DNA from: a virus
Lineage: Duplodnaviria; Caudoviricetes
Direction: 5' to 3' (one strand)
DNA: 64,000 bases
IMG/VR virus record: IMGVR_UViG_3300034073_002120
This document shows positions 48,833 to 57,683 of the stretch, piece after piece. The position numbers and the translations under genes were made by a program. The notes under the pieces are model-generated. The model saw only the letters and a program-made list of their open reading frames with translations. It was not told the DNA's origin and made no database searches. The first letter of the stretch is position 1, and every line of letters begins with the position of its first letter.

Positions 48833-49010
48833 CGTTACGATTGTATTCTTTTATGGCACCTAAAATAAGAACACCAACCATAATACCACCAAATACTTCT
48901 AATATAGAACTATGATTGTAGGGATTTTTATAACTATCATAGACATAAACACAAAGTGTAACTACTACAATAGGTAATATACCTTTCATGTACTCATTTA
49001 AGTGATTCAT
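48822..49010 (-). CDS. Small membrane protein
   Basis: Two hydrophobic helices. Confidence 0.5.
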   Translation of the reverse strand: MNHLNEYMKGILPIVVVTLCVYVYDSYKNPYNHSSILEVFGGIMVGVLILGAIKEYNRNDEV

Positions 49011-49026
49011 AAATAATTAATTAAAT

Positions 49027-49103
49027 TGGTGGGCCAGATAGGAATCGAACCTATTACCTACTGATTATGAGTCAGTTGCTCTAACCGAATGAGCTACAAG
49101 CCC
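49027..49103 (-). tRNA. tRNA with CAT anticodon (probably Ile2/lysidine)
   Basis: GGGCTTG/TGGCCC acceptor, ACTGA-CTCATAA-TCAGT, encoded CCA. Confidence 0.9.
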
Positions 49104-49158
49104 TTAATCGTTTATATTAACGATAAAGTTGAATATCGTATGTTTCAACGATAAATAA

Positions 49159-49278
49159 GGTGCCGGTGGTAGGATTGGATACCTACACGATGTCCATTTC
49201 GGATACACCCCCTTACTAGTATTACAGGACGTCTAATAGTTTTATTCGAATTCAAACTATTCTTTCCGCCACACCGGC
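49159..49278 (-). ncRNA. tRNA-like RNA with hairpin inserted in D-loop and non-canonical anticodon and T loops
   Basis: Perfect GCCGGTG/CACCGGC acceptor, A73, long variable arm. Confidence 0.7.
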
Positions 49279-49283
49279 ATATG

Positions 49284-49357
49284 TGGAGATGATAGGAATC
49301 GAACCTACGACCCTCTGCGTGCAAGGCAGATGCTCTAGCCAACTGAGCTACATCCCC
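49284..49357 (-). tRNA. tRNA-Ala(TGC)
   Basis: Canonical cloverleaf, G3-U70. Confidence 0.95.
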
Positions 49358-49364
49358 AATATTG

Positions 49365-49449
49365 TACCTGAAGAGGGACTTGAACCCACACGCCCATTAC
49401 TGGACAACAGATTTTAAGTCTGTCTTGTCTACCATTCCAACATTCAGGC
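49365..49449 (-). tRNA. tRNA-Leu(TAA)
   Basis: Cloverleaf with long variable arm. Confidence 0.93.
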
Positions 49450-49454
49450 AAATT

Positions 49455-49862
49455 TTATTTTACTTTATAAACTTTCACTTTTGAAAGTTTTGTTTGTTTG
49501 TCTTTTGGGTTGATTAAAATATCAATACGTTTTTTGTATCTCTTATTCATCACATCCCTTACCACATATTCACCATTGTACTTACCGGCATTTCTCAAAC
49601 GAACTCTCTGGCCGAACTTTAACTTACGTTTTAAATCCCTACTTACTGCAATGATTCTATGTTTCTTAGGATTACGTTTACTAATCTTAAATCCACTTGC
49701 TGTAATGTTTGGTGTAGAATCGGTTTCTTCTGCTGTTGCTTTGTATGTTGTGACAGTTACTATTCCTAATTCTTCTAAATTACTTTCTTCTATTTCTACA
49801 TTTGTGGTTGTTACTTCTAATGGAAATAACAACATAATAAAACTTATGAAAAGTTGTTGCAT
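49455..49862 (-). CDS. 3D-domain (MltA-like) protein
   Basis: VTVTTY, TASG, IAVSRD, VVRD, RIDI. Confidence 0.8.
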   Translation of the reverse strand: MQQLFISFIMLLFPLEVTTTNVEIEESNLEELGIVTVTTYKATAEETDSTPNITASGFKISKRNPKKHRIIAVSRDLKRKLKFGQRVRLRNAGKYNGEYVVRDVMNKRYKKRIDILINPKDKQTKLSKVKVYKVK

Positions 49863-49910
49863 AATTTTTGGGTTTGGTTTATTTTAAGGTTTAAAGTTTT
49901 AACTTTTATG

Positions 49911-49982
49911 TAGCCCCACTAAGAATCGAACTTAGAAATCCTCTTTAGAAGAGAGGTGTTATATCCATTTAACTATGGAGCC
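49911..49982 (-). tRNA. tRNA-Arg(TCT)
   Basis: CCTCT-CTTCTAA-AGAGG. Confidence 0.92.
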
Positions 49983-49983
49983 A

Positions 49984-50060
49984 TGGCGGTGTATACGAGA
50001 TTCGAACTCGTGGTCTCTTCCGTGACAGGGAAGCATGTTGGGCCTCTACACCAATACACC
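49984..50060 (-). tRNA. tRNA-Asp(GTC)
   Basis: Cloverleaf, G73, CCA. Confidence 0.95.
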
Positions 50061-50064
50061 GATT

Positions 50065-50169
50065 GCAGGGGATGTTTCCATTCTAGTGGAACAACCCCCG
50101 ATTGGTTTTCATCAACTGATGAATCCACTCTATGGTTACTATCTGACTCTTTTCGAACTTTCGGGGCTC
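50065..50169 (-). ncRNA. Candidate structured RNA
   Basis: CCCCGA/TCGGGG pairing, TTCATC/GATGAA hairpin, terminal GGGG..TTCC/GGAA..CCCC hairpin. Confidence 0.4.
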
Positions 50170-50195
50170 GTATCATTCAATTTCAGTAATCATTG

Positions 50196-50268
50196 AGCCT
50201 CCTACCGGGTTCGAACCAGTGACATTCTCATTACAAATGAGATGCTCTACCAACTGAGCTAAGGAGGC
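50196..50268 (-). tRNA. tRNA-Thr(TGT)
   Basis: Canonical cloverleaf. Confidence 0.95.
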
Positions 50269-50273
50269 AATTT

Positions 50274-50458
50274 ATGTATCAGTTCCATACCGACCTATTA
50301 GGAACTATTAGGGTTTCTCGGACGAGGTGCACAACCCAAATCGGCTATAATGTGTTATCAGTTACTTGGCTTCCACCTTCGTTGGAATTATTAAACGGGA
50401 TTTGAACCCACCTCATTGATGTATGCCTACATCAACTTTCACTGCACATTTGATACAT
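50274..50458 (-). ncRNA. 185-nt multi-stem RNA with internal T-loop motif
   Basis: ATGTATCA/TGATACAT closing stem, TTGATGTA/TACATCAA hairpin, GGGTTCAAATCCC. Confidence 0.6.
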
Positions 50459-50460
50459 TG

Positions 50461-50532
50461 TACTCCCAACGGGATTCGAACCCGTGACTCATCCGTGAAA
50501 GGGACGTGACTTAACCGCTTGTCGATGGGAGC
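50461..50532 (-). tRNA. tRNA-Glu(TTC)
   Basis: Canonical cloverleaf. Confidence 0.95.
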
Positions 50533-50599
50533 AGTTTCCAATTTTGATGGGCTCTTCGATTAGAGTGTTTCATCTAACCAGCACTTGAGATTGGGAACT
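50533..50599 (-). ncRNA. Candidate closed-stem small RNA
   Basis: AGTTCCCAAT/ATTGGAAACT ends; GGTTAGA/TCTAATC internal hairpin. Confidence 0.45.
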
Positions 50600-50604
50600 C
50601 CTTG

Positions 50605-50727
50605 TTGTCAATACTGGATTCGAACCAGTGATAGTCTCCATCAGCACATTGATAAAGCAGAGACTCCGTTCTTCTGTCAGAAAGTTTGAATCAATGTTTC
50701 GGGGCGTGTTCCTCTCGCCTTTTGACA
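50605..50727 (-). ncRNA. tRNA-like RNA with expanded anticodon and variable arms
   Basis: TGTCAA/TTGACA acceptor, GGCG/CGCC D-arm, canonical ACTGG-TTCGAAT-CCAGT T-arm. Confidence 0.7.
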
Positions 50728-50735
50728 ATTTTATT

Positions 50736-50808
50736 GGGTGTAAGGACGGTATCGAACCGACTTCCCTGGCTCCACAAACCAGTACATCACCTTAATGCTT
50801 CAAACACC
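50736..50808 (-). tRNA. tRNA-His(GTG)
   Basis: G-1/C73, CTGGT-TTGTGGA-GCCAG. Confidence 0.88.
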
Positions 50809-50844
50809 ATATTGTTTTAATAACCATCATCTCAAAGAACATTG

Positions 50845-50877
50845 TAAAGATACGAAATTATTTTAACATTTCCTAAT
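50845..50877 (-). promoter_or_regulatory. Bacteroidota-type promoter followed by boxA-like GTTCTTTGAG
   Basis: ATTAGGAAA...TTCGTATCTTTA; boxA-like site at 50831-50840. Confidence 0.7.
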
Positions 50878-50896
50878 CTTTTTTAACATTTTTTTG

Positions 50897-50969
50897 TTGC
50901 GTAGGGTGGGAATCGAACCCACTTATTTTGGCTTATGAGACCAATGAAATACCTTACCTCCCCCTCGCG
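50897..50969 (-). tRNA. tRNA-Met(CAT), atypical acceptor
   Basis: TTGGT-CTCATAA-GCCAA, canonical T-arm. Confidence 0.8.
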
Positions 50970-51002
50970 ATGTATTAGGGAACGTTCTCCCTAATTGTTT
51001 AA

Positions 51003-51035
51003 CAAATATACGAATTTATTTTAATATATCCAAAT
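51003..51035 (-). promoter_or_regulatory. Bacteroidota-type promoter
   Basis: ATTTGGATA...TTCGTATATTTG. Confidence 0.75.
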
Positions 51036-51041
51036 AAATCT

Positions 51042-51500
51042 TTATTTATTTTTTACTAAATGGTCTGCACAATATGTTGCAATAGGACCTAATGATTTGT
51101 ATCTTACATTATATCCCATACCTTCAACCATACCAACTGCTTGTCTGAATACTTCGTTAGATTTGAAACGTGGGTCTGGATTTAAATCCACATCAATCCA
51201 CTTTGGTTTTTTAACACCATTCTCTTTTAAGTATTCAGCAGTTTCAATTGCGAACCAAACTTCTTGTAATAACCTTACTGAACGAACTCTTTCTCTTTCA
51301 GTATTCCATCTTCTATATAAAACGTGTCCTCCTTTACCTTGTCTATATAATGCAACTACAATTGCGTAAATAGTTTTAGTACCGGAGTTTTGTGAATCAC
51401 AACCAATTAAGATTTCAGCATCACTATACGTTTCCATATATTCTTTGATATATGTTACTAATTGAATTTCTTCGCCAGATTGTAATTTTTTAAAAACCAT
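51042..51500 (-). CDS. RNase H-like YkuK/DUF458 family protein
   Basis: ILIGCDSQ, RLLQEV, DVDLN, ADHL. Confidence 0.8.
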   Translation of the reverse strand: MVFKKLQSGEEIQLVTYIKEYMETYSDAEILIGCDSQNSGTKTIYAIVVALYRQGKGGHVLYRRWNTERERVRSVRLLQEVWFAIETAEYLKENGVKKPKWIDVDLNPDPRFKSNEVFRQAVGMVEGMGYNVRYKSLGPIATYCADHLVKNK

Positions 51501-51524
51501 TTTATTTCCTTTTTTAATAAGTAG

Positions 51525-51598
51525 TGTCCATAGTAGGATTCGAACCTACACAAACTGGTTTCTAAGACCAGTGCGGTTGCCAATTACGCCATACGGAC
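51525..51598 (-). tRNA. tRNA-Leu(TAG) lacking the long variable arm
   Basis: CTGGT-CTTAGAA-ACCAG; 5-nt variable loop. Confidence 0.8.
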
Positions 51599-51607
51599 AA
51601 TTTTCAG

Positions 51608-51693
51608 TAGAGAGTGAGAGGCTCGAACTCTCGCGACTTTCACATCCTACCTCGTTAGCAATGAGGCCCCTTCACCAACTTGGGTAACTCTCT
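51608..51693 (-). tRNA. tRNA-Ser(GCT)
   Basis: Class II cloverleaf. Confidence 0.9.
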
Positions 51694-51759
51694 ATGTTGT
51701 ATAATATATTATTCATTATATACCTTTTTAGGGGTTTTTGTATAATATATTATCCATCG

Positions 51760-51829
51760 TTGCGTGTTTGAGGTTCGAACTCAATTGACTTTCCTTATGA
51801 GAGAAAGTTCTTTTCCACTAAGTCACGCA
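51760..51829 (-). tRNA. tRNA-Met(CAT), degenerate (short D region, 7-bp anticodon stem)
   Basis: ACTTTCT-CTCATAA-GGAAAGT; TTGAG-TTCGAAC-CTCAA. Confidence 0.65.
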
Positions 51830-51888
51830 GTTTTGTGGAATTGAACCACACTCTCCTCGTCAGGCGATACGACCAGTATCCTTTATCG

Positions 51889-51960
51889 AGTCACGTATTG
51901 GATTCGAACCAATGTAAGAGGTTTTGCAGACCTCCGCCTAACCAACTCGGCCAACCTGAC
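51889..51960 (-). tRNA. tRNA-Cys(GCA)
   Basis: Cloverleaf, U73. Confidence 0.93.
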
Positions 51961-51968
51961 ATTTAATG

Positions 51969-52040
51969 TAGTTCTATTAGGATTCGAACCCAAACTTTTT
52001 CATCCGTAGTGAAAGGTGCTATCCGTTACACCATAGAACC
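51969..52040 (-). tRNA. tRNA-Arg(ACG)
   Basis: TTTCA-CTACGGA-TGAAA. Confidence 0.92.
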
Positions 52041-52044
52041 ATTA

Positions 52045-52242
52045 TTATTTCCATTGAGTCTTTCGGTTGTGTTTCCAACTTTTATACTCTCTGAACTTAT
52101 GTGAGTAAATTGGTTTACCATTTCCATGTCTACCCCAAATCTTTGAAGGTGCACAATCATAATACCAACTACCACATCTTTTAGAACAAATGAAACAATA
52201 GTTCCATTCCATTCTCATTCTCTTTACTCTTTCTTCTTTCAT
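52045..52242 (-). CDS. Small basic Cys-containing protein
   Basis: YCFICSKRCG; ends YKSWKHNRKTQWK. Confidence 0.55.
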   Translation of the reverse strand: MKEERVKRMRMEWNYCFICSKRCGSWYYDCAPSKIWGRHGNGKPIYSHKFREYKSWKHNRKTQWK

Positions 52243-52293
52243 TTTACATTAGGTTTGTTTACCTAATGTTTGTCAAATAATTGTTTCATAGTT

Positions 52294-52686
52294 TTACATT
52301 TTATTTTCCTCATAGTGATGTATTCTATGACAATTGGCACATAATACATCACACTTTTCTATTTCCTTTAAGAACTTTTCTTTGGATACTGATAATTTAG
52401 AACTAGCCAAAGTGAATTCTTTTTTAGATGAATCTCTATGATGAAAATCTAAAGCTGCAGGATGTGAAAATCCACATTTACTACATTTAAGGTTTGATTT
52501 ATATTCTACATACCATTCCTTAAATTCTTTTCTTCTTTGAGATTGTCTTATTTTAGCTTTCTCTCTTTCCACTTCTTTATTTCGTTCATACCATTCATTT
52601 CTATATGAACGCATCTTATCAGCGTTTTGTTCTTTCCATTCTTTTGTTGCCATAATATATTCTTTAATATAAATATAGTATCTCAA
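52294..52686 (-). CDS. HNH endonuclease
   Basis: CSKCG, LDFHH, LCANCHRIHH; likely start MATKEW at 52653. Confidence 0.85.
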   Translation of the reverse strand: MRYYIYIKEYIMATKEWKEQNADKMRSYRNEWYERNKEVEREKAKIRQSQRRKEFKEWYVEYKSNLKCSKCGFSHPAALDFHHRDSSKKEFTLASSKLSVSKEKFLKEIEKCDVLCANCHRIHHYEENKM

Positions 52687-52718
52687 ACAAAAAAGTTGTT
52701 TTGGAAACTTTTATTTAG

Positions 52719-52789
52719 CACGGGTAGTAGGATTCGAACCCACATCAAAGCTTTTGGAGAGCCGTATGCTACCATTGCACCATACCCAT
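52719..52789 (-). tRNA. tRNA-Trp(CCA)
   Basis: CTCCAAA loop, G73. Confidence 0.9.
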
Positions 52790-52796
52790 AATTAAT

Positions 52797-52858
52797 CAAG
52801 AAGATAGCCAGAAATTAGTGACGTCAAATCTCTTTAAGCTATATGAACTATCTTCTTG
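52797..52858 (-). ncRNA. Candidate closed-stem small RNA
   Basis: 11-bp perfect terminal stem CAAGAAGATAG/CTATCTTCTTG. Confidence 0.5.
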
Positions 52859-52887
52859 TTAGGATTGGTTAATTACTCCAATCTTCG

Positions 52888-52961
52888 TTGGTAGTGCGGG
52901 ATTCGAACCTGCCACCTTCTCGGTATCAGCGAGATGCTCTAACCAAATGAGCTAACTACCA
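52888..52961 (-). tRNA. tRNA-Ile(GAT)
   Basis: TCTCG-CTGATAC-CGAGA. Confidence 0.93.
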
Positions 52962-52990
52962 ATAAGTGGTGGATGTATGTTCATCACATA

Positions 52991-53533
52991 CTATTGGGTT
53001 TCCACCAAACCCCTTGTCATTTCAATGAACTTATTTCTATATTCATCTATTTTATCAATCACTTCATCTTTATATTTCGAATGAACATATTGATGATGTG
53101 TTGGACAAAGTGGTATAAGATTTTTAGGGTCATTGTTATAGTGATTTTCATCATAGTGATGAACTGCAACTATTTTACTTTCCCCACAAATTACACATTC
53201 CTTTGTATGATGTTCAAAACAAGTACTTCTATACGAATCATCTTTCCAATTTGGATTTTGTTTTCCACTTCTGAAAAATGTGTTTGAACATTTATAGGAA
53301 CAAGTAGTTTTTTCTCTCTTATTACCAATTTGTGTTTCAAATTCATTACCACATACTGGACAATTCTTTTTAATTGCTTCATATTTAGGTAATCTTACTT
53401 TAAGATGGTCTATGGATATATTCTTTTCAGAAACCATATCATAGAACTTCTTTTGTGTTTTGCCATTATAATATCCGTATAACTTTTTAATTGCTTCGGA
53501 TTTTGTTTTACATTCTTTTATTATATTTTCCAT
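52991..53533 (-). CDS. HNH endonuclease with zinc ribbon
   Basis: CPVCG...TCSYKC; CVICG, VHHYD, NLIPLCPTHH. Confidence 0.85.
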   Translation of the reverse strand: MENIIKECKTKSEAIKKLYGYYNGKTQKKFYDMVSEKNISIDHLKVRLPKYEAIKKNCPVCGNEFETQIGNKREKTTCSYKCSNTFFRSGKQNPNWKDDSYRSTCFEHHTKECVICGESKIVAVHHYDENHYNNDPKNLIPLCPTHHQYVHSKYKDEVIDKIDEYRNKFIEMTRGLVETQ

Positions 53534-53591
53534 ACTAATAAATATAACAAAATCGTAAAAACATAATTTGACAATGTAATCATTACGATTG

Positions 53592-53666
53592 TAGGGTAGA
53601 GAGGACTCGAACCTCCACGATGTCTTGCTCCCAAAGCAAGCGGCCTAGCCATTGGCCCACTACCCT
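53592..53666 (-). tRNA. tRNA-Pro(TGG)
   Basis: CTTGC-TTTGGGA-GCAAG. Confidence 0.92.
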
Positions 53667-53721
53667 ATGGTGGATGGATTATTTTTTTAAAGTAGAATTC
53701 GCCAACCTCAAAACTACTATG

Positions 53722-53795
53722 TGAACCCGAATGGATTCGAACCATTGACTCCCTCATTAAAAGTGAGGTGCTCTAACCAACTGAGCTACGGATTC
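53722..53795 (-). tRNA. tRNA-Lys(TTT)
   Basis: Canonical cloverleaf. Confidence 0.95.
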
Positions 53796-53800
53796 AATTG

Positions 53801-53873
53801 TGGGACCTCAAGGAATCGAACCTTGTCCTTCCGCTCTTCAGGCGGACGTACGCACCAGCTATACGAAAGTCCC
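53801..53873 (-). tRNA. tRNA-Phe(GAA)
   Basis: TCCGC-CTGAAGA-GCGGA. Confidence 0.92.
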
Positions 53874-53879
53874 ATTTTG

Positions 53880-53961
53880 TGCCGCCGGTAGGACTCGAAC
53901 CTACGAACTCCGAAGAGGAGGGATTTACAGTCCCTTGCAATTGCCACTATGCGACGTCGGC
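53880..53961 (-). tRNA. tRNA-Tyr(GTA)
   Basis: Class II cloverleaf. Confidence 0.93.
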
Positions 53962-53967
53962 GTTAAA

Positions 53968-54044
53968 TGGTAGGAGATATAGGATTCGAACCTATGACCC
54001 TTTGGATGTAAACCAAATGCTCTAACCAACTGAGCTAATCTCCT
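53968..54044 (-). tRNA. tRNA-Val(TAC)
   Basis: Canonical cloverleaf, CCA. Confidence 0.95.
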
Positions 54045-54050
54045 AAATTG

Positions 54051-54121
54051 TTACTCGAGCAGGATTCGAACCTACCCTAAATGCCCCAAAAACACTTGTG
54101 CTACCGCTACACCATCGAGCA
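54051..54121 (-). tRNA. tRNA-Gln(TTG)
   Basis: U1-A72, AGTGT-TTTTGGG-GCATT. Confidence 0.85.
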
Positions 54122-54136
54122 ATTTAAAATTTATTG

Positions 54137-54208
54137 AGCGAGTAGTCAGAATCGAACTGACATATCCTACTTGGAAGGAAGGCATAATAGCCGTTATACT
54201 ATACTCGC
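54137..54208 (-). tRNA. tRNA-Gly(TCC)
   Basis: GCG/CGC acceptor, U73. Confidence 0.92.
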
Positions 54209-54226
54209 GTTTCAAAGAACTAATTG

Positions 54227-54298
54227 AGGGTAGGGAGAATTTCGAAATCTCGACCTGATGATTAACAGTCATCTGCTCTGCCTCTGAGCTACCAACCC
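54227..54298 (-). tRNA. tRNA-Asn(GTT)
   Basis: GATGA-CTGTTAA-TCATC. Confidence 0.9.
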
Positions 54299-54303
54299 GT
54301 AAA

Positions 54304-54339
54304 TAAAAAAACCCTTAACTTTTTTATCAGTTAAGGGTT
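54304..54339 (-). terminator. Intrinsic terminator directly upstream of the Asn-Gly-Gln-Val-Tyr-Phe-Lys tRNA run
   Basis: aacccttaac-tgataaaaaa-gttaagggtt plus T run. Confidence 0.8.
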
Positions 54340-54371
54340 CTTCAAATATTTTCTATTTAAATCTTACATCA

Positions 54372-54530
54372 TTACCATCCAGATGCTTCCCTTAACGTTG
54401 TACTAATATAATCCACCTTGCCCAAATTGAACACTGCCGGAGTTGCTATCGTACTAAACATACGATTCCCTTGCCACTCACATCTTTGTGTAGGCAGTTG
54501 GTTGTTCATATGTAATGCTAAGTTTTTCAT
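54372..54530 (-). CDS. 52-aa putative leader peptide
   Basis: MKNLALHMNNQLPTQRCEWQGNRMFSTIATPAVFNLGKVDYISTTLREASGW behind ATATTTATA at 54535. Confidence 0.55.
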   Translation of the reverse strand: MKNLALHMNNQLPTQRCEWQGNRMFSTIATPAVFNLGKVDYISTTLREASGW

Positions 54531-54599
54531 CTTGTATAAATATCTAAAAATTATTTTTTCGTAACGTTTGTTTGTTTTTTATTATTAGCTAAATAAAAA

Positions 54600-54667
54600 A
54601 ACTAATCCATCTTCAAAATACACCTACAAGTCATGCTCTGGTTAATATCAGCCTCGAAGGATTAGTT
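54600..54667 (-). ncRNA. Candidate closed-stem small RNA
   Basis: AACTAATCC/GGATTAGTT terminal stem extended by CTTC/GAAG. Confidence 0.45.
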
Positions 54668-54677
54668 CGTTTAAAAA

Positions 54678-54802
54678 ATGAAAGATTTGTAGGGTGGTTC
54701 TTTCAAAAGGACTAGCTACATCCGTTGTTTACCATCAACACTAATTCGTATTGGTTGCGATTCTTTAAGGCAAAAATCCCCTACTGAAAACCATATCTTC
54801 AT
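54678..54802 (-). ncRNA. Candidate multi-stem RNA
   Basis: ATGAAGAT/ATCTTTCAT and GTAGGG/CCCTAC nested stems. Confidence 0.45.
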
Positions 54803-54884
54803 ACTATTTGTCTTTTTTATTTAAGTGGAATTTTCAGTTATTGGAGAGATACACCCAACCTGTCTGTCGTAAACCACTACGAAG

Positions 54885-54925
54885 CTATCTATATTGGAAT
54901 CGAACCAACTTTAACCATTTAGATA
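54885..54925 (-). ncRNA. Minimal tRNA mimic (acceptor stem plus T-arm, no anticodon arm)
   Basis: TATCTA/TAGATA, ATGGTTAAA linker, GTTGG-TTCGATT-CCAAT. Confidence 0.55.
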
Positions 54926-54932
54926 AAAATAT

Positions 54933-55766
54933 AAGGATGAGAATACTCCATATTGTGAACCAGCTTTATAAGGGTTATTAGTTGCCTTAATTTCCACTTC
55001 CTTTTGAGAAGTACCAATTCAATGTGGGTAAGTAATGCCTACCACTCATAAAGTTACAAACTACTCTCTCTTTACTCTACCTCTTCGAGTTTGCCAACCC
55101 GATTCACACCTCGCGATGCTAGAAGCTTTTCGAAAGAATCACATTTCCCTTGAGAGGATTTGTGGCAGGGAACATCTCCCTACTAAGTACACACCTTTCG
55201 TCTGCAACTGGTAACCACTTTCTCTTTATTTGTTTTTATAGTTTGCACCTAAAGCAAATTGAGTTTGGTTTGTAGATGGATTCAGGTAGTGGATTACCAC
55301 TAGCTCCGTTCCACTTTAAAGAACGGAATACTATACTACCCGATACGGCATCTCTACCGTCATACTTTAAGACTACTTCAATACCCACTCTTTGGTGAGA
55401 GGTAGGTAAGGATAATAACAACACCACTTGTACATCATCATACCTTTCGGTTTTAAGTAACCTTTAATATTGAATCACACAATAATAAGGAGAGATTAAG
55501 TCCTTACTTTTTGTATTAACTCTATGGATTATTTTTATTGGTGTTCCCACCTCAACTGAACTTCTACTTAGCCCAGTCATCAAACCATTTCGCTACGGAG
55601 TTACCCTCACTACTAAGGTCTAATGATATTCCACTTGCATACTTGAGTTCCATTTCTGAAACCGCAAACCGTCTAACCAAACGATTCACTTTATCCTTGT
55701 TTCCAAGTTTATTTAACCACCATATGCGGCGGGTATGCATTATGTAGAACGAGTCTACTATATGCA
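54933..55766 (-). ncRNA. Giant structured ncRNA, probably GOLLD
   Basis: ~830 nt, GC above background, dense GNRA-capped hairpins (cttggaaacaag, accgaaaggt), 3' GGTTCACAATATGGAGTATTCTCATCC; own promoter; inside a tRNA array. Family call from recall, needs cmsearch. Confidence 0.72.
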
Positions 55767-55818
55767 ATATTTTCAATAATTTTAAAGAACGTTTTTTGTA
55801 ATCCTTTTGATTACTTTG

Positions 55819-55851
55819 TAAAGATACGAAATGTTTTTCACATTTCCAAAT
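55819..55851 (-). promoter_or_regulatory. Promoter of the giant RNA, followed by hairpin and boxA-like GTTCTTTAAA
   Basis: ATTTGGAAA...TTCGTATCTTTA; gtaatc/gattac hairpin; boxA-like site at 55781-55790. Confidence 0.75.
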
Positions 55852-55861
55852 ATTTTTACAA

Positions 55862-56074
55862 TTATTTTTTAATTATTTTTTTCACATTTTCAACGTGGTC
55901 ATCAATTAACTTTGATAATCTTTGATTACTAAGTAAACTAAGATACAAATTGAAGAACAACATTGCTGAGATGAATGCATATGTATCGAATCTTTTTTCG
56001 ATTACACTTATTATACCACTTAATAATGACATAACACATCCAGTAATTAAAAGAACTTTTTGAAACTTTACCAT
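55862..56074 (-). CDS. Small membrane protein
   Basis: Two hydrophobic helices; behind promoter 56161. Confidence 0.55.
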   Translation of the reverse strand: MVKFQKVLLITGCVMSLLSGIISVIEKRFDTYAFISAMLFFNLYLSLLSNQRLSKLIDDHVENVKKIIKK

Positions 56075-56160
56075 AATTTATTTTTTTTTAAATTGAACAA
56101 TACTACTTTCGTTTTGTTGTTTGATTCATAGATTGCGTTTGGTTGGTTTCTTTTACTTTG

Positions 56161-56193
56161 TAAAGATACGAAAACTTTTTGATATTTCCAAAT
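56161..56193 (-). promoter_or_regulatory. Bacteroidota-type promoter
   Basis: ATTTGGAAA...TTCGTATCTTTA. Confidence 0.75.
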
Positions 56194-56214
56194 CTTTTTT
56201 AAAGTTTTTTTTTT

Positions 56215-56280
56215 GAGTAAGTTAGTATGACGTTTGGCTCTTCACCCAAAGGTTTAGATAACCGGTTCTCTTACTTACTC
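56215..56280 (-). ncRNA. Candidate closed-stem small RNA
   Basis: GAGTAAGT/ACTTACTC 8-bp terminal stem; TTTGG/CCAAA internal hairpin. Confidence 0.45.
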
Positions 56281-56284
56281 TTAG

Positions 56285-56356
56285 TTGCAGGGGAAGGATT
56301 CGAACCTCCGACCTATGGGTTATGAGCCCACCAAGCTACCACTGCTCTACCCTGCG
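56285..56356 (-). tRNA. Initiator tRNA-fMet(CAT)
   Basis: C1.A72 mismatch; GGG/CCC anticodon stem. Confidence 0.93.
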
Positions 56357-56458
56357 ATATAATATTTATTAATAATTGAAATGTTGTACATTTACGGACG
56401 TCTTATTTACGATTAGTCTACTATTCCACAATTATTATATTTCTCAAAGAACGTTTTT

Positions 56459-56534
56459 GTAATCAGATTCAACCATTTGGTATAGTAAACTTCGTCACTC
56501 TTACTTCAGGTACATTTTTACGATTTCTGATTAC
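56459..56534 (-). ncRNA. Candidate closed-stem leader RNA
   Basis: GTAATCAGA/TCTGATTAC 9-bp stem right after promoter; boxA-like site at 56444-56452. Confidence 0.45.
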
Positions 56535-56538
56535 TTTG

Positions 56539-56571
56539 TAAAGATACGAAATTAATTTCACAATTCCAAAT
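56539..56571 (-). promoter_or_regulatory. Bacteroidota-type promoter
   Basis: ATTTGGAAT...TTCGTATCTTTA. Confidence 0.75.
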
Positions 56572-56685
56572 CTTTTTTCATTTATTTTTTTTATTATTAA
56601 AATAATGGTATCCGGCTTTATTCCTTACGGGGTCACATAGTCGGTTTTATTACTATTGGCTTCAACCTTTATTTCAATAACAATA

Positions 56686-56718
56686 CAAAGATACGAAATG
56701 TTTTTGATATTTCCAAAT
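56686..56718 (-). promoter_or_regulatory. Bacteroidota-type promoter
   Basis: ATTTGGAAA...TTCGTATCTTTG. Confidence 0.78.
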
Positions 56719-56775
56719 CTTTTGTAAAGTTTTTTTTCGTATGTATAAATATATAAAAATATACAAAACGTAAAA

Positions 56776-57147
56776 TGGTGGAGATGGAGGGAGTCGAACC
56801 CTCGTCCAAAATATGGTTTAATAAACCTCATTCACAAGCTTAGTTAGTTTTTCTTAACTAACAAAATATATAAAGATTTATACATTCATTATCATTAATG
56901 TTTCCAATTCGATTTCGGGTTCAATTGGGTTTCCACCTGATTTCACATTCTATTTCAAGTCCCACGATGTGTGCGGGAGTAATTAGGCAGCTACTGCGTA
57001 ATCAGCACCAACGAATGCCATAGCATCTTCGAAGGTCATTGTAGATAATTCTACTGCGTTTATTGTTCGATAGGTGTTTAAGGATTTCCATCTAATCCTG
57101 CTTGCAATTATACTAACACTTCATACCTGTCAAAACCGGGCATCCCC
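56776..57147 (-). ncRNA. ssrA: tmRNA; tag AVELSTMTFEDAMAFVGADYAVAA* at 56983-57057
   Basis: 5' GGGGATG...TTTGACAG, 3' GGTTCGACTCCCTCCATCTCCACCA with G3-U70; internal frame ending YAVAA-stop. Confidence 0.93.
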
Positions 57148-57172
57148 ATATATTAAAGAACTTTTTACTTTT

Positions 57173-57344
57173 GCTGTAATGGGAGGATTCGAACACTCCA
57201 CGGTGCGATTCAGTTAGTAACACATTCTTGCAAGATGGTGGTCTACCCCATATTACTAACCTATTTCGTTCTCACCACCCTCGAGACAGGAGGGCTTGTC
57301 TGCCAGATTTGCACACGTACAAATCATTTTCCAACACACTACAA
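57173..57344 (-). ncRNA. 172-nt tRNA-like RNA (D-loop hairpin insert, CTGTCTC loop, very long variable arm)
   Basis: TTGTAGT/ATTACAG acceptor, CCCTC/GAGGG stem, GGTTAGTAA/TTACTAACT, TTCGAAT T-loop. Confidence 0.75.
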
Positions 57345-57353
57345 TTTAATTTG

Positions 57354-57439
57354 CGGAAGGGGTAGGATTCGAACCCACGGTACCTTGCAGTACACTTGAT
57401 TTCAAGTCAAGCGCGATAGACCAACTCTGCCACCCTTCC
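57354..57439 (-). tRNA. tRNA-Ser(TGA)
   Basis: Class II cloverleaf, G73. Confidence 0.95.
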
Positions 57440-57452
57440 ATTATAATATATA

Positions 57453-57683
57453 TTATATATTATGTTTTTCTACTCTACGTTTAGCTTCTTCTGCTTCCTT
57501 CACCATTTTAATCCATGTTATAGTTACATCGACTGGTGCTAAAATACCTGCCATAACTAATACCATTATTGAATCTAACTCTGGTGATGTTCCGTAATCT
57601 ACACCTCGTGTCTTATATTTTTTATTTAATTGATAAAAACAATAAATAATACAAAGAACGTAATAGGTAATAAACCAATTCAT
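57453..57683 (-). CDS. Small membrane protein (start reassigned to MNWFITYY)
   Basis: Two hydrophobic helices; the upstream part of the track ORF overlaps a structured region. Confidence 0.55.
   Translation of the reverse strand: MNWFITYYVLCIIYCFYQLNKKYKTRGVDYGTSPELDSIMVLVMAGILAPVDVTITWIKMVKEAEEAKRRVEKHNI

Follow-up and report, generated by a model that had tools for sequence, protein, structure and literature searches.

Introduction

Stable RNAs C and D of bacteriophage T4 (species 1 and 2) are small non-decoding RNAs in the T4 tRNA cluster that are released by tRNA-processing enzymes and whose function is unknown. To our knowledge, they have not been described as tRNA-Leu derivatives with palindromic loops. 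Other RNAs pair with one another through exposed loops. The HIV-1 dimerization initiation site (DIS) carries a 6-nt palindrome in an apical loop that can form a kissing dimer or an extended duplex (PMC7357161), and the prohead RNA (pRNA) of phi29 uses two mutually complementary, non-palindromic loops to build head-to-tail rings on the portal (PMC7357161). Symmetric kissing loops are found in GOLLD, ROOL and OLE, where the palindromes covary (GGCC to GAUC or AGCU) (bioRxiv 10.1101/2024.12.08.627333), and Kretsch et al. report that palindrome covariation at adjacent nucleotides supports the bridges between molecules that cryo-EM revealed in OLE and GOLLD (bioRxiv 10.1101/2024.12.08.627333).

Here we describe a tRNA-shaped RNA of 120 nt encoded in a stretch of 64,000 nucleotides (hereafter the window) from a virus of the Caudoviricetes (IMG/VR record IMGVR_UViG_3300034073_002120). 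It combines these two known kinds, the phage tRNA-like small RNA and the RNA that self-associates through palindromic loops, with the self-association being inferred. The gene is conserved, single-copy and stem-covarying, and keeps the acceptor/T minihelix, the discriminator A, the encoded CC and the long variable arm of a tRNA; the D-loop GG, the TΨC loop and a usable anticodon loop have been lost. The fuller reading, that this is a functional non-decoding RNA made from a tRNA-Leu whose copies pair with themselves via palindromic loops, is in our judgement as likely to be wrong as right, both the function and the dimers being inferred.

Class II tRNA-Leu (RF00005) resembles the family RNA in its 7-bp acceptor stem, A73, U8, GCGG..AGAC D arm, long paired variable arm and 5-bp T stem, and in its place inside a tRNA operon with 4–5 nt spacers. 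The family RNA differs in having a hairpin in place of G18G19, an 8-nt T loop without UUC, an anticodon stem of 2–3 pairs with no fixed 7-nt loop or U33, and a score below the Rfam threshold. The T4 RNAs share its position among phage tRNA genes, a likeness drawn from general background and not from a sequence comparison. One member (L157) carries GUGCAC, the hexamer cited for the HIV-1 DIS, although that site pairs genomes within viral genomic RNA, while the family RNA bears two loops on a tRNA-shaped RNA of a DNA phage. GOLLD, ROOL and OLE are likewise phage-associated, lie near tRNA islands and show the same evolutionary signature, and GOLLD is present in the same array; however, they are 400–800+ nt long and form oligomers observed by cryo-EM, whereas the family RNA is 108–123 nt long, derives from a tRNA and has no determined structure. 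They are unrelated to it in sequence and fold. The phi29 pRNA is also a small phage RNA that oligomerises through loop-loop pairing, which for the family RNA is only predicted. As each loop of the family RNA is self-complementary, unlike those of phi29 pRNA, alternating head-to-head and tail-to-tail contacts would be predicted.

Locus and anatomy of the 120-nt RNA

The RNA is read from the minus strand, from 49278 to 49159, including an invariant 3′ ACC. Its gene sits between tRNA-Ala(UGC) (49283–49357) and tRNA-Met(CAU) (49027–49103) in a minus-strand array of 25 tRNA genes, covering all 20 amino acids, together with a tmRNA and a GOLLD RNA. The whole gene (49159–49278, minus strand) is recognized by R1, the covariance model built from the family homologues, with 104.5 bits (E = 2e-24), and has 118 homologous loci.

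The 5′ strand of the acceptor stem, GCCGGUG (49272–49278, minus strand), pairs perfectly with CACCGGC (49168–49162) over 7 bp; the latter is followed by the discriminator A (49161) and by CC (49160–49159), so that the 3′ side of the acceptor occupies 49159–49168 (minus strand). None of the 80 distinct sequences of the family departs from this A and CC, and the base that follows varies. The D arm (49229–49269, minus strand) is of the Leu type (UG GCGG AAAG ... AGAC GU) and has a 3-bp stem, GCG with CGU, in which the G18G19 of the D loop is replaced by an inserted hairpin. This hairpin (49235–49261, minus strand; sequence reading and RNAfold) lies between GGCGGAAAG and AGAC and consists of an 8-bp stem, AAUAGUUU/AAACUAUU, closed by an 11-nt loop. 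No GG is present between the hairpin and AGAC in the 120-nt RNA. Within the loop is the palindrome AUUCGAAU (49244–49251, minus strand), the first proposed site of intermolecular pairing, with a computed self-duplex energy of −6.1 kcal/mol.

The arm in the anticodon position is degenerate (49210–49228, minus strand), with 3 bp (C-G, C-G and U·G) below a 13-nt loop; throughout the family only 2–3 basal pairs are kept. This loop holds the 8-nt palindrome UACUAGUA (49214–49221, minus strand), the second proposed pairing site, with a computed self-duplex energy of −7.4 kcal/mol. The long variable arm (49189–49209, minus strand) is built from GGUG/CAUC, an internal loop, CC/GG (or UCC/GGA) and a GAAAU loop, and the T arm (49169–49186, minus strand) from a 5-bp stem, GUAGG/CCUAC, and a non-canonical 8-nt loop, UAUCCAAU. 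The cloverleaf-like structure has an energy of −33.2 kcal/mol, against an unconstrained minimum of −35.1. The anatomical claims of the first-pass annotation, which had been made without database searches, all held: the perfect acceptor with A73, a hairpin inserted into the D loop, a three-pair anticodon arm containing a palindrome, a paired variable arm and an 8-nt T loop. It had noted one palindrome and missed the main pattern, which is that both loops are palindromic and covary as palindromes.

Several observations concern the 3′ side of the gene. Most tRNA genes of the array (49027–57439, minus strand) encode only N73-C-A after the acceptor stem, full CCA being encoded in three of them (Met 49027, Asp and Val); the 120-nt RNA gene encodes ACC and then U. 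The spacer between the RNA and tRNA-Met (49104–49158, minus strand) contains two A+U-rich hairpins, GUUGAA/UUCAAC and AUCGUU/AACGAU, and the motif UUAUUUAUCGUUGA, which lies immediately 3′ of ACC in the window spacer, recurs in many relatives. In some relatives the next tRNA begins only 4–8 nt 3′ of the RNA. A promoter and terminator scan gave no signal exceeding the shuffled background.

A conserved family of environmental phages

Searches of GenBank phages with blastn returned matches to the flanking tRNAs only, and no record with the RNA. Pattern scans of IMG/VR and metagenome contigs, with a piece of the variable arm as bait, gave 125 matches, 118 of which parse as full-length homologues from environmental phage contigs and represent 80 distinct sequences. 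A first scan with an exact 17-mer had found two true relatives and three chance or unrelated matches (L004, L008 and L005); the L005 match is an odd Leu-like tRNA. A pattern made from the D arm alone returned mostly chance matches, and bait-independent members among its loci emerged after the model search: R1 finds further members in loci fetched by this unrelated pattern. Members keep the fold of the variable arm with other sequences, such as GCAG/CUGC (L028) and GAUU/AAUC (L122 and L114), and since R1-found members do so, the variable arm is not an artefact of the bait.

The stems are maintained by compensatory change. Across the 80 sequences, 99.5% of cells in the acceptor are paired and 5 of its 7 pairs have changed on both sides, and 4 of the 5 T-stem pairs covary. 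The D stem is 100% paired and contains G·U in 72 of 80 sequences, which fixes the transcribed strand. RNAalifold, with no structure supplied, returns the same cloverleaf and recovers the D stem independently. The most invariant parts are elements of the tRNA body (U8, GGCGGAA, AGACG, A73 and CC). The T loop follows the consensus UA..CA[AG]N and is 8 nt long in most members and 7 nt in a few (UGAAAAU, UUAAAGC). The D insert occupies the same place on unrelated stems in relatives (AGGU/ACCU, AUAGU/ACUAU, CGGGU/GCCCU and AUGAC/GUCAU). As a fixed trait of the RNA, the D-loop hairpin proposed by the first-pass annotation must be qualified, as it is absent from one natural member, L207, and replaced by unrelated inserts in others.

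These data bear on the simplest alternative, that the locus is a decaying tRNA-Leu pseudogene or a mere processing spacer without function. In favour of this view, the gene is missing from the closest complete relative, and it is rejected by tRNA finders. Against it, 80 distinct sequences, which are not repeated assemblies of a single one, keep every stem by compensatory change; neither A73 nor CC ever varies; and the T loop, although non-canonical, is conserved. Because of the stem covariation decay is excluded, and we consider the pseudogene or spacer explanation to be all but ruled out. The first-pass annotation had inferred a selected architecture and not random decay, and had named an ordinary tRNA-Leu at this locus in relatives, with unconserved stems, as what would refute it. 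That inference held: none of the relatives has an ordinary tRNA-Leu here, the locus containing either the same odd RNA or nothing (L002). We regard it as very likely that this is a functional tRNA-Leu-derived RNA gene.

The gene is present in one copy per whole viral record. The closest complete relative (L002, a 287-kb record with 88% identity in a neighbouring protein) lacks it, and the gene is thus dispensable. When 185,579 prokaryotic species were scanned, each represented by a single genome, the sole match was a MAG contig of 558 bp, and on these grounds we assign the family to phages. No paper on the family was found in the literature searched, although the family may be among the roughly 10,000 candidate viral RNAs catalogued in 2023 (PMC10690425).

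Two further sequences were seen among these contigs. A truncated copy at L140:1948-2031 (minus strand) has the 3′ half only (variable arm, T arm, acceptor 3′ strand and ACC), joined to unrelated 5′ sequence. Directly 3′ of the RNA in six loci (L015, L137, L149, L229, L246 and L247), the tRNA-Met is replaced by a conserved sequence, GGGCUUUGGUGAUA(U/C)AGCCA(C/U)AAAGAGAG, which could possibly be another small structured RNA.

Descent from tRNA-Leu and operon setting

The family derives from class II tRNA-Leu, as shown by two cross-matches. R1 matches the tRNA-Leu(UAA) of the window (49363–49449) with 31.2 bits (E = 4e-5), and L207, the member without a hairpin, can be aligned over its full length to RF00005, scoring 26.4 bits, just below the gathering threshold. 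The features expected of Leu descent are met, namely a covarying long variable arm, an invariant A73, a D arm of the Leu type and similarity to a genuine tRNA-Leu.

The setting is that of a tRNA operon. A tRNA on the same strand, usually tRNA-Ala, ends 4–5 nt upstream in 72 of 109 loci, and a tRNA lies at most 90 nt downstream in 90 of 112 loci, 86 of these 90 being tRNA-Met(CAU). From this context we infer, without expression data, that the RNA is co-transcribed with the neighbouring tRNAs. Its excision by RNase P and the 3′ tRNA-processing enzymes, and the completion of ACC to ACCA, are likewise inferred and not supported by end-mapping data.

The D-loop hairpin and the 57173 RNA

A second tRNA-shaped RNA of the same array (57173–57344, minus strand) also has a hairpin in its D loop, and the first-pass annotation had proposed that the two share one architecture. 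This held in part: in both RNAs the hairpin enters between GGAAA and AGAC, at sites that agree to about 2 nt, but the similarity does not reflect common descent. The 57173 RNA carries a 6-bp hairpin after GGAAAA and before GGCAGAC. It differs from the 120-nt RNA in that its hairpin is followed by a retained GG and its T loop is canonical (UUCGAAU), and R1 gives no match to it at E ≤ 1; it is therefore a member of a different family. It also carries a self-complementary 10-nt palindrome, UCUUGCAAGA. The Leu-like 5′ part of the 57173–57344 RNA (UG UUGG AAAA, hairpin, GGCAGAC AAG) closely resembles the D arm of tRNA-Leu(UAA).

Other unusual genes were encountered in this and other arrays. The array of the window contains a full-length GOLLD RNA (RF02032, 264 bits) at 54934–55343 (minus strand). 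A link between GOLLD and the 120-nt RNA was considered and rejected, as arrays with and without the 120-nt RNA both have GOLLD (L007, L183, L206, L205, L009, L190 and L002). Two Leu-type tRNA-like genes on unrelated viral contigs, L005:3712-3819 (plus strand) and L093:13084-13258 (plus strand), have a normal D arm and T loop and an oversized region (about 50 and 115 nt, respectively) replacing the anticodon and variable arms; the L005 gene is not called by ARAGORN. In a related array (L006/L007, 2125–2209 and 7657–7741, minus strand), ARAGORN reports a tRNA-Ser with anticodon ACU, which is unusual for bacteria and phages.

Loss of the decoding features

An RNA can be counted as a canonical tRNA if it reaches the Rfam RF00005 gathering threshold of 29 bits or is called by a tRNA finder. 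ARAGORN calls the RNA in 0 of 118 loci, including the window copy and L207, and no Rfam 15 family matches the window RNA, with no RF00005 match even at E ≤ 10. No Rfam model for tmRNA, YrlA or other catalogued tRNA-like RNAs reaches its threshold on the window RNA. Of the overlapping matches, the best are tmRNA_permuted, with 20 bits against a threshold of 47, and Tymo_tRNA-like, with 11.9 bits against one of 40; the adjacent tRNA-Ala drives both, and the YrlA score of 17.2 bits (threshold 69) falls at 49298–49421, outside the RNA.

The anatomy agrees only in part with that of a canonical tRNA. The 7-bp acceptor stem and discriminator base are as required. The canonical elbow is not, as there is neither a D-loop G18G19 nor a 7-nt T loop (U54 U55 C56 R57 A58), and a 5-bp anticodon stem with a 7-nt loop and U33 is also missing, 2–3 basal pairs being conserved. 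U, A or C occupies position 33, which covaries with position 38. In many members CUA stands at the canonical anticodon position, directly followed by G; tRNAs that read codons starting with U carry A37. Instead of CUA, some members carry CCGG, UCGA or a 6-bp stem with a GUAA cap. We conclude that the RNA is likely non-decoding. The possibility that the D hairpin is an intron was rejected, as L207, which has no hairpin, is still without G18G19.

The CUA in the loop raises the alternative of an unusual decoding tRNA, an amber suppressor with anticodon CUA, that tRNA finders miss owing to the D insert. This is supported by the canonical placement of CUA in many members, some of which have a 7-nt UUCUAGA loop with U33, and by a tRNA-Leu-like body with ACC. 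Against it, TAG is a normal stop with no sign of recoding: of the 73 long ORFs in the window, 9 end in it, and read-through merges no genes and lengthens nothing important. Position 33 is variable, with position 38 complementary to it, A36 is followed by G at position 37, and members with CCGG, UCGA or a GUAA tetraloop exist. The window copy has an anticodon stem of 2–3 pairs and neither G18G19 nor a TΨC loop, and the absence of any ARAGORN call extends to the hairpin-less member. On stop-codon usage and loop anatomy, the amber-suppressor idea was rejected; we hold a decoding role to be very unlikely.

Palindromic loops and proposed intermolecular pairing

Both of the remodelled loops are palindromic, and while their sequences change, the palindromy stays. 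The anticodon-like loop is centred on the tetranucleotide CUAG, CCGG or UCGA, embedded in hexamers such as ACUAGU, UCUAGA, CCUAGG, UCCGGA and UUCGAA that are often extended to 8–10 nt. A perfect palindrome of 6–10 nt is present in 29 of 36 distinct anticodon-like arms, and the remaining 7 have the central CUAG only; imperfect hexamers (ACUAGA, ACUAGG) occur in few members. The 7-nt loop of the D hairpin carries UGUACA on at least four different covarying stems, and other D-hairpin loops carry GUGCAC, UGGCCA (on two unrelated stems), GUAC or, in the window, AUUCGAAU. Palindromes of 6 nt or more are present in the majority of D-hairpin loops. The rates expected by chance are 4.7% for a 6-nt palindrome in a random 7-nt loop of this composition and 2.6% for an 8-nt palindrome in an 11-nt loop.

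We scored the palindrome positions as pseudo-pairs and compared them with 500 shuffles. The three central pairs of the anticodon loop are complementary in 94.2% of cells, and all three have changed on both sides; the observed palindrome covariation was reached by 0 of 500 shuffles. The adjacent central bases (columns 77–78) are UA in 62 sequences and CG in 12, columns 76–79 are CG in 69, UA in 6 and UG in 5, and columns 75–81 are UA in 51, CG in 10 and AU in 8. Adjacent bases cannot pair within one loop, and the constraint on the palindrome therefore points to intermolecular pairing. The palindromes of the D loop are off-centre within 7-nt loops, where intra-hairpin pairing is impossible, and in the window AUUCGAAU and UACUAGUA are self-complementary sequences exposed apically in loops of 11 and 13 nt.

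CTAG is about 5-fold under-represented in the window, with 34 occurrences against about 183 expected from composition; given this avoidance, its retention in the anticodon-like loop is more telling. For the same expectation of about 183, the window contains 88 GTAC and 145 TCGA.

As for the partner of each loop, the two loops of a molecule are complementary neither to each other nor to the T loop, and pairing of these kinds was rejected; a second array RNA with the same palindromes was rejected because none exists within 48900–57500. UACUAGUA and AUUCGAAU are found nowhere else within that interval, and as both palindromes occur once in the array, the partner would be another copy of the same RNA. 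Estimated self-duplex energies range from −4.8 to −9.2 kcal/mol for palindromes of 6–10 nt and are about −4 kcal/mol for UUCGAA. The cofold dimer has −82.3 kcal/mol versus 2 × −35.1 kcal/mol for the monomers, a gain that is generic for any hairpin with a palindromic tip. On balance, we lean towards the view that the RNA self-associates through its loops, an inference that rests on sequence and thermodynamic estimates and not on physical data.

Some features of the family weaken this inference. Not every member has the palindromes: in L122 and L114 the anticodon-like stem is of 6 bp with a GUAA cap and the D insert is non-palindromic, and two further types of D insert, together with L207, are without a palindromic D loop. 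In one clade the anticodon-like arm can be folded as a 5-bp hairpin with a CUAG, CCGG or UCGA tetraloop, and therefore only the central dinucleotide argues there for intermolecular pairing. With only three types of central tetranucleotide there are few independent switches, and template-switch (“quasipalindrome”) mutation is able to make perfect palindromes without selection.

This last point leads to a rival explanation at the level of DNA, in which the palindromes result from template-switch correction of inverted repeats, or are DNA sites bound by a protein, and the RNA is monomeric, its arms merely terminating in small hairpin loops. It is supported by a clade whose entire anticodon-like arm reads as a near-perfect inverted repeat about its centre, reaching 14 nt if G·U pairs are counted, and by the D insert of L160, a perfect palindrome of 14 nt; quasipalindrome correction typically yields sequences of both kinds. 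However, the D-loop palindromes of the UGUACA type are off-centre with respect to their stems and would not be made by stem-templated correction, and in the window clade the 8-nt palindrome, set in a loop of 13 nt, has flanks that are mismatched. Each site accommodates five or more different hexamers, which a protein that binds DNA sequence-specifically would not accept, and CTAG is otherwise avoided in the genome. A purely mutational or DNA-level origin thus appears unlikely.

A model for assembly and the monomeric alternative

In the mechanism that we propose, a tRNA-processing “handle” composed of the acceptor/T minihelix, A73 and CC would deliver a stable small RNA. The anticodon tip and the extra arm at the elbow would each expose a self-complementary, sticky loop of 6–10 nt, and each loop would pair with the same loop of a second molecule, either as a kissing loop or as an extended duplex. 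One self-pairing site would give a homodimer. Two sites would make the RNA a bivalent tile that forms chains or closed rings with the acceptor ends outward; alternating contacts in chains or rings are expected because two different sites on an L-shaped body could hardly both be satisfied within one dimer. Such an assembly may sequester a host factor that binds tRNA, act as a scaffold or present charged ends.

A bolder reading, which we offer only as a possibility, is that, during infection, a CCA-tailed, tRNA-shaped “tile” assembles inside the cell into chains, rings or a condensate made of RNA alone, its acceptor ends facing outward. It may do so by means of two different self-complementary loops, perhaps aided by the GAAA-type loop of the variable arm, and the assembly could conceivably capture defence nucleases or host enzymes that bind tRNA, or display ends that are charged.

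The main competing view is that of a monomeric tRNA mimic, whose body of acceptor, T and variable arms binds a host or phage tRNA-binding protein as decoy, sponge or substrate, the loop palindromes being incidental or sites of protein contact. The partner might be a defence nuclease that cleaves tRNA, LeuRS, a modification enzyme or an aminoacyl-transferase that uses charged, non-ribosomal tRNA. In support, the elements of the tRNA body are the most invariant ones, and the members without palindromes (L122, L114 and L207) keep the body, as expected if it is the functional part. Identity of tRNA-Leu does not depend on the anticodon, and a Leu scaffold could remain chargeable after the anticodon is lost, charging by LeuRS or SerRS being conjectural. 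On the other side, the mimic leaves unexplained why two separate loops change and yet stay self-complementary, and an anticodon-nuclease decoy would be expected to reproduce a single anticodon loop, whereas the loops here are variable. E. coli LeuRS uses tertiary features that the loss of G18G19 removes. Pfam scans of 20 neighbouring ORFs returned PhoH, RNase H-like, HNH, radical SAM/B12, Hint and 2OG oxygenase domains, and no tRNA-dependent enzyme. We regard the monomeric mimic as unlikely and prefer the self-pairing RNA.

Implications for phage tRNA islands

With no family in Rfam 15, and with tRNA finders skipping the RNA, such genes are currently left unannotated in phage genomes. The family is an example of a tRNA gene put to a new use: the elements that excision and end maturation require are retained, and those required for decoding are swapped for what we read as interaction modules. 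Phage tRNA islands were recently shown to encode RNAs that assemble without protein (GOLLD and ROOL), whose function is unknown. If LeuRS still charges the RNA, it would be a dedicated, non-ribosomal aminoacyl carrier. If the proposed assembly is true, it would be the smallest natural RNA-only assembly of phage tRNA islands and the first on a tRNA fold. Small, abundant and easily transcribed, with two sites that can be mutated, the family would offer a tractable means of asking why phages make self-associating RNAs.
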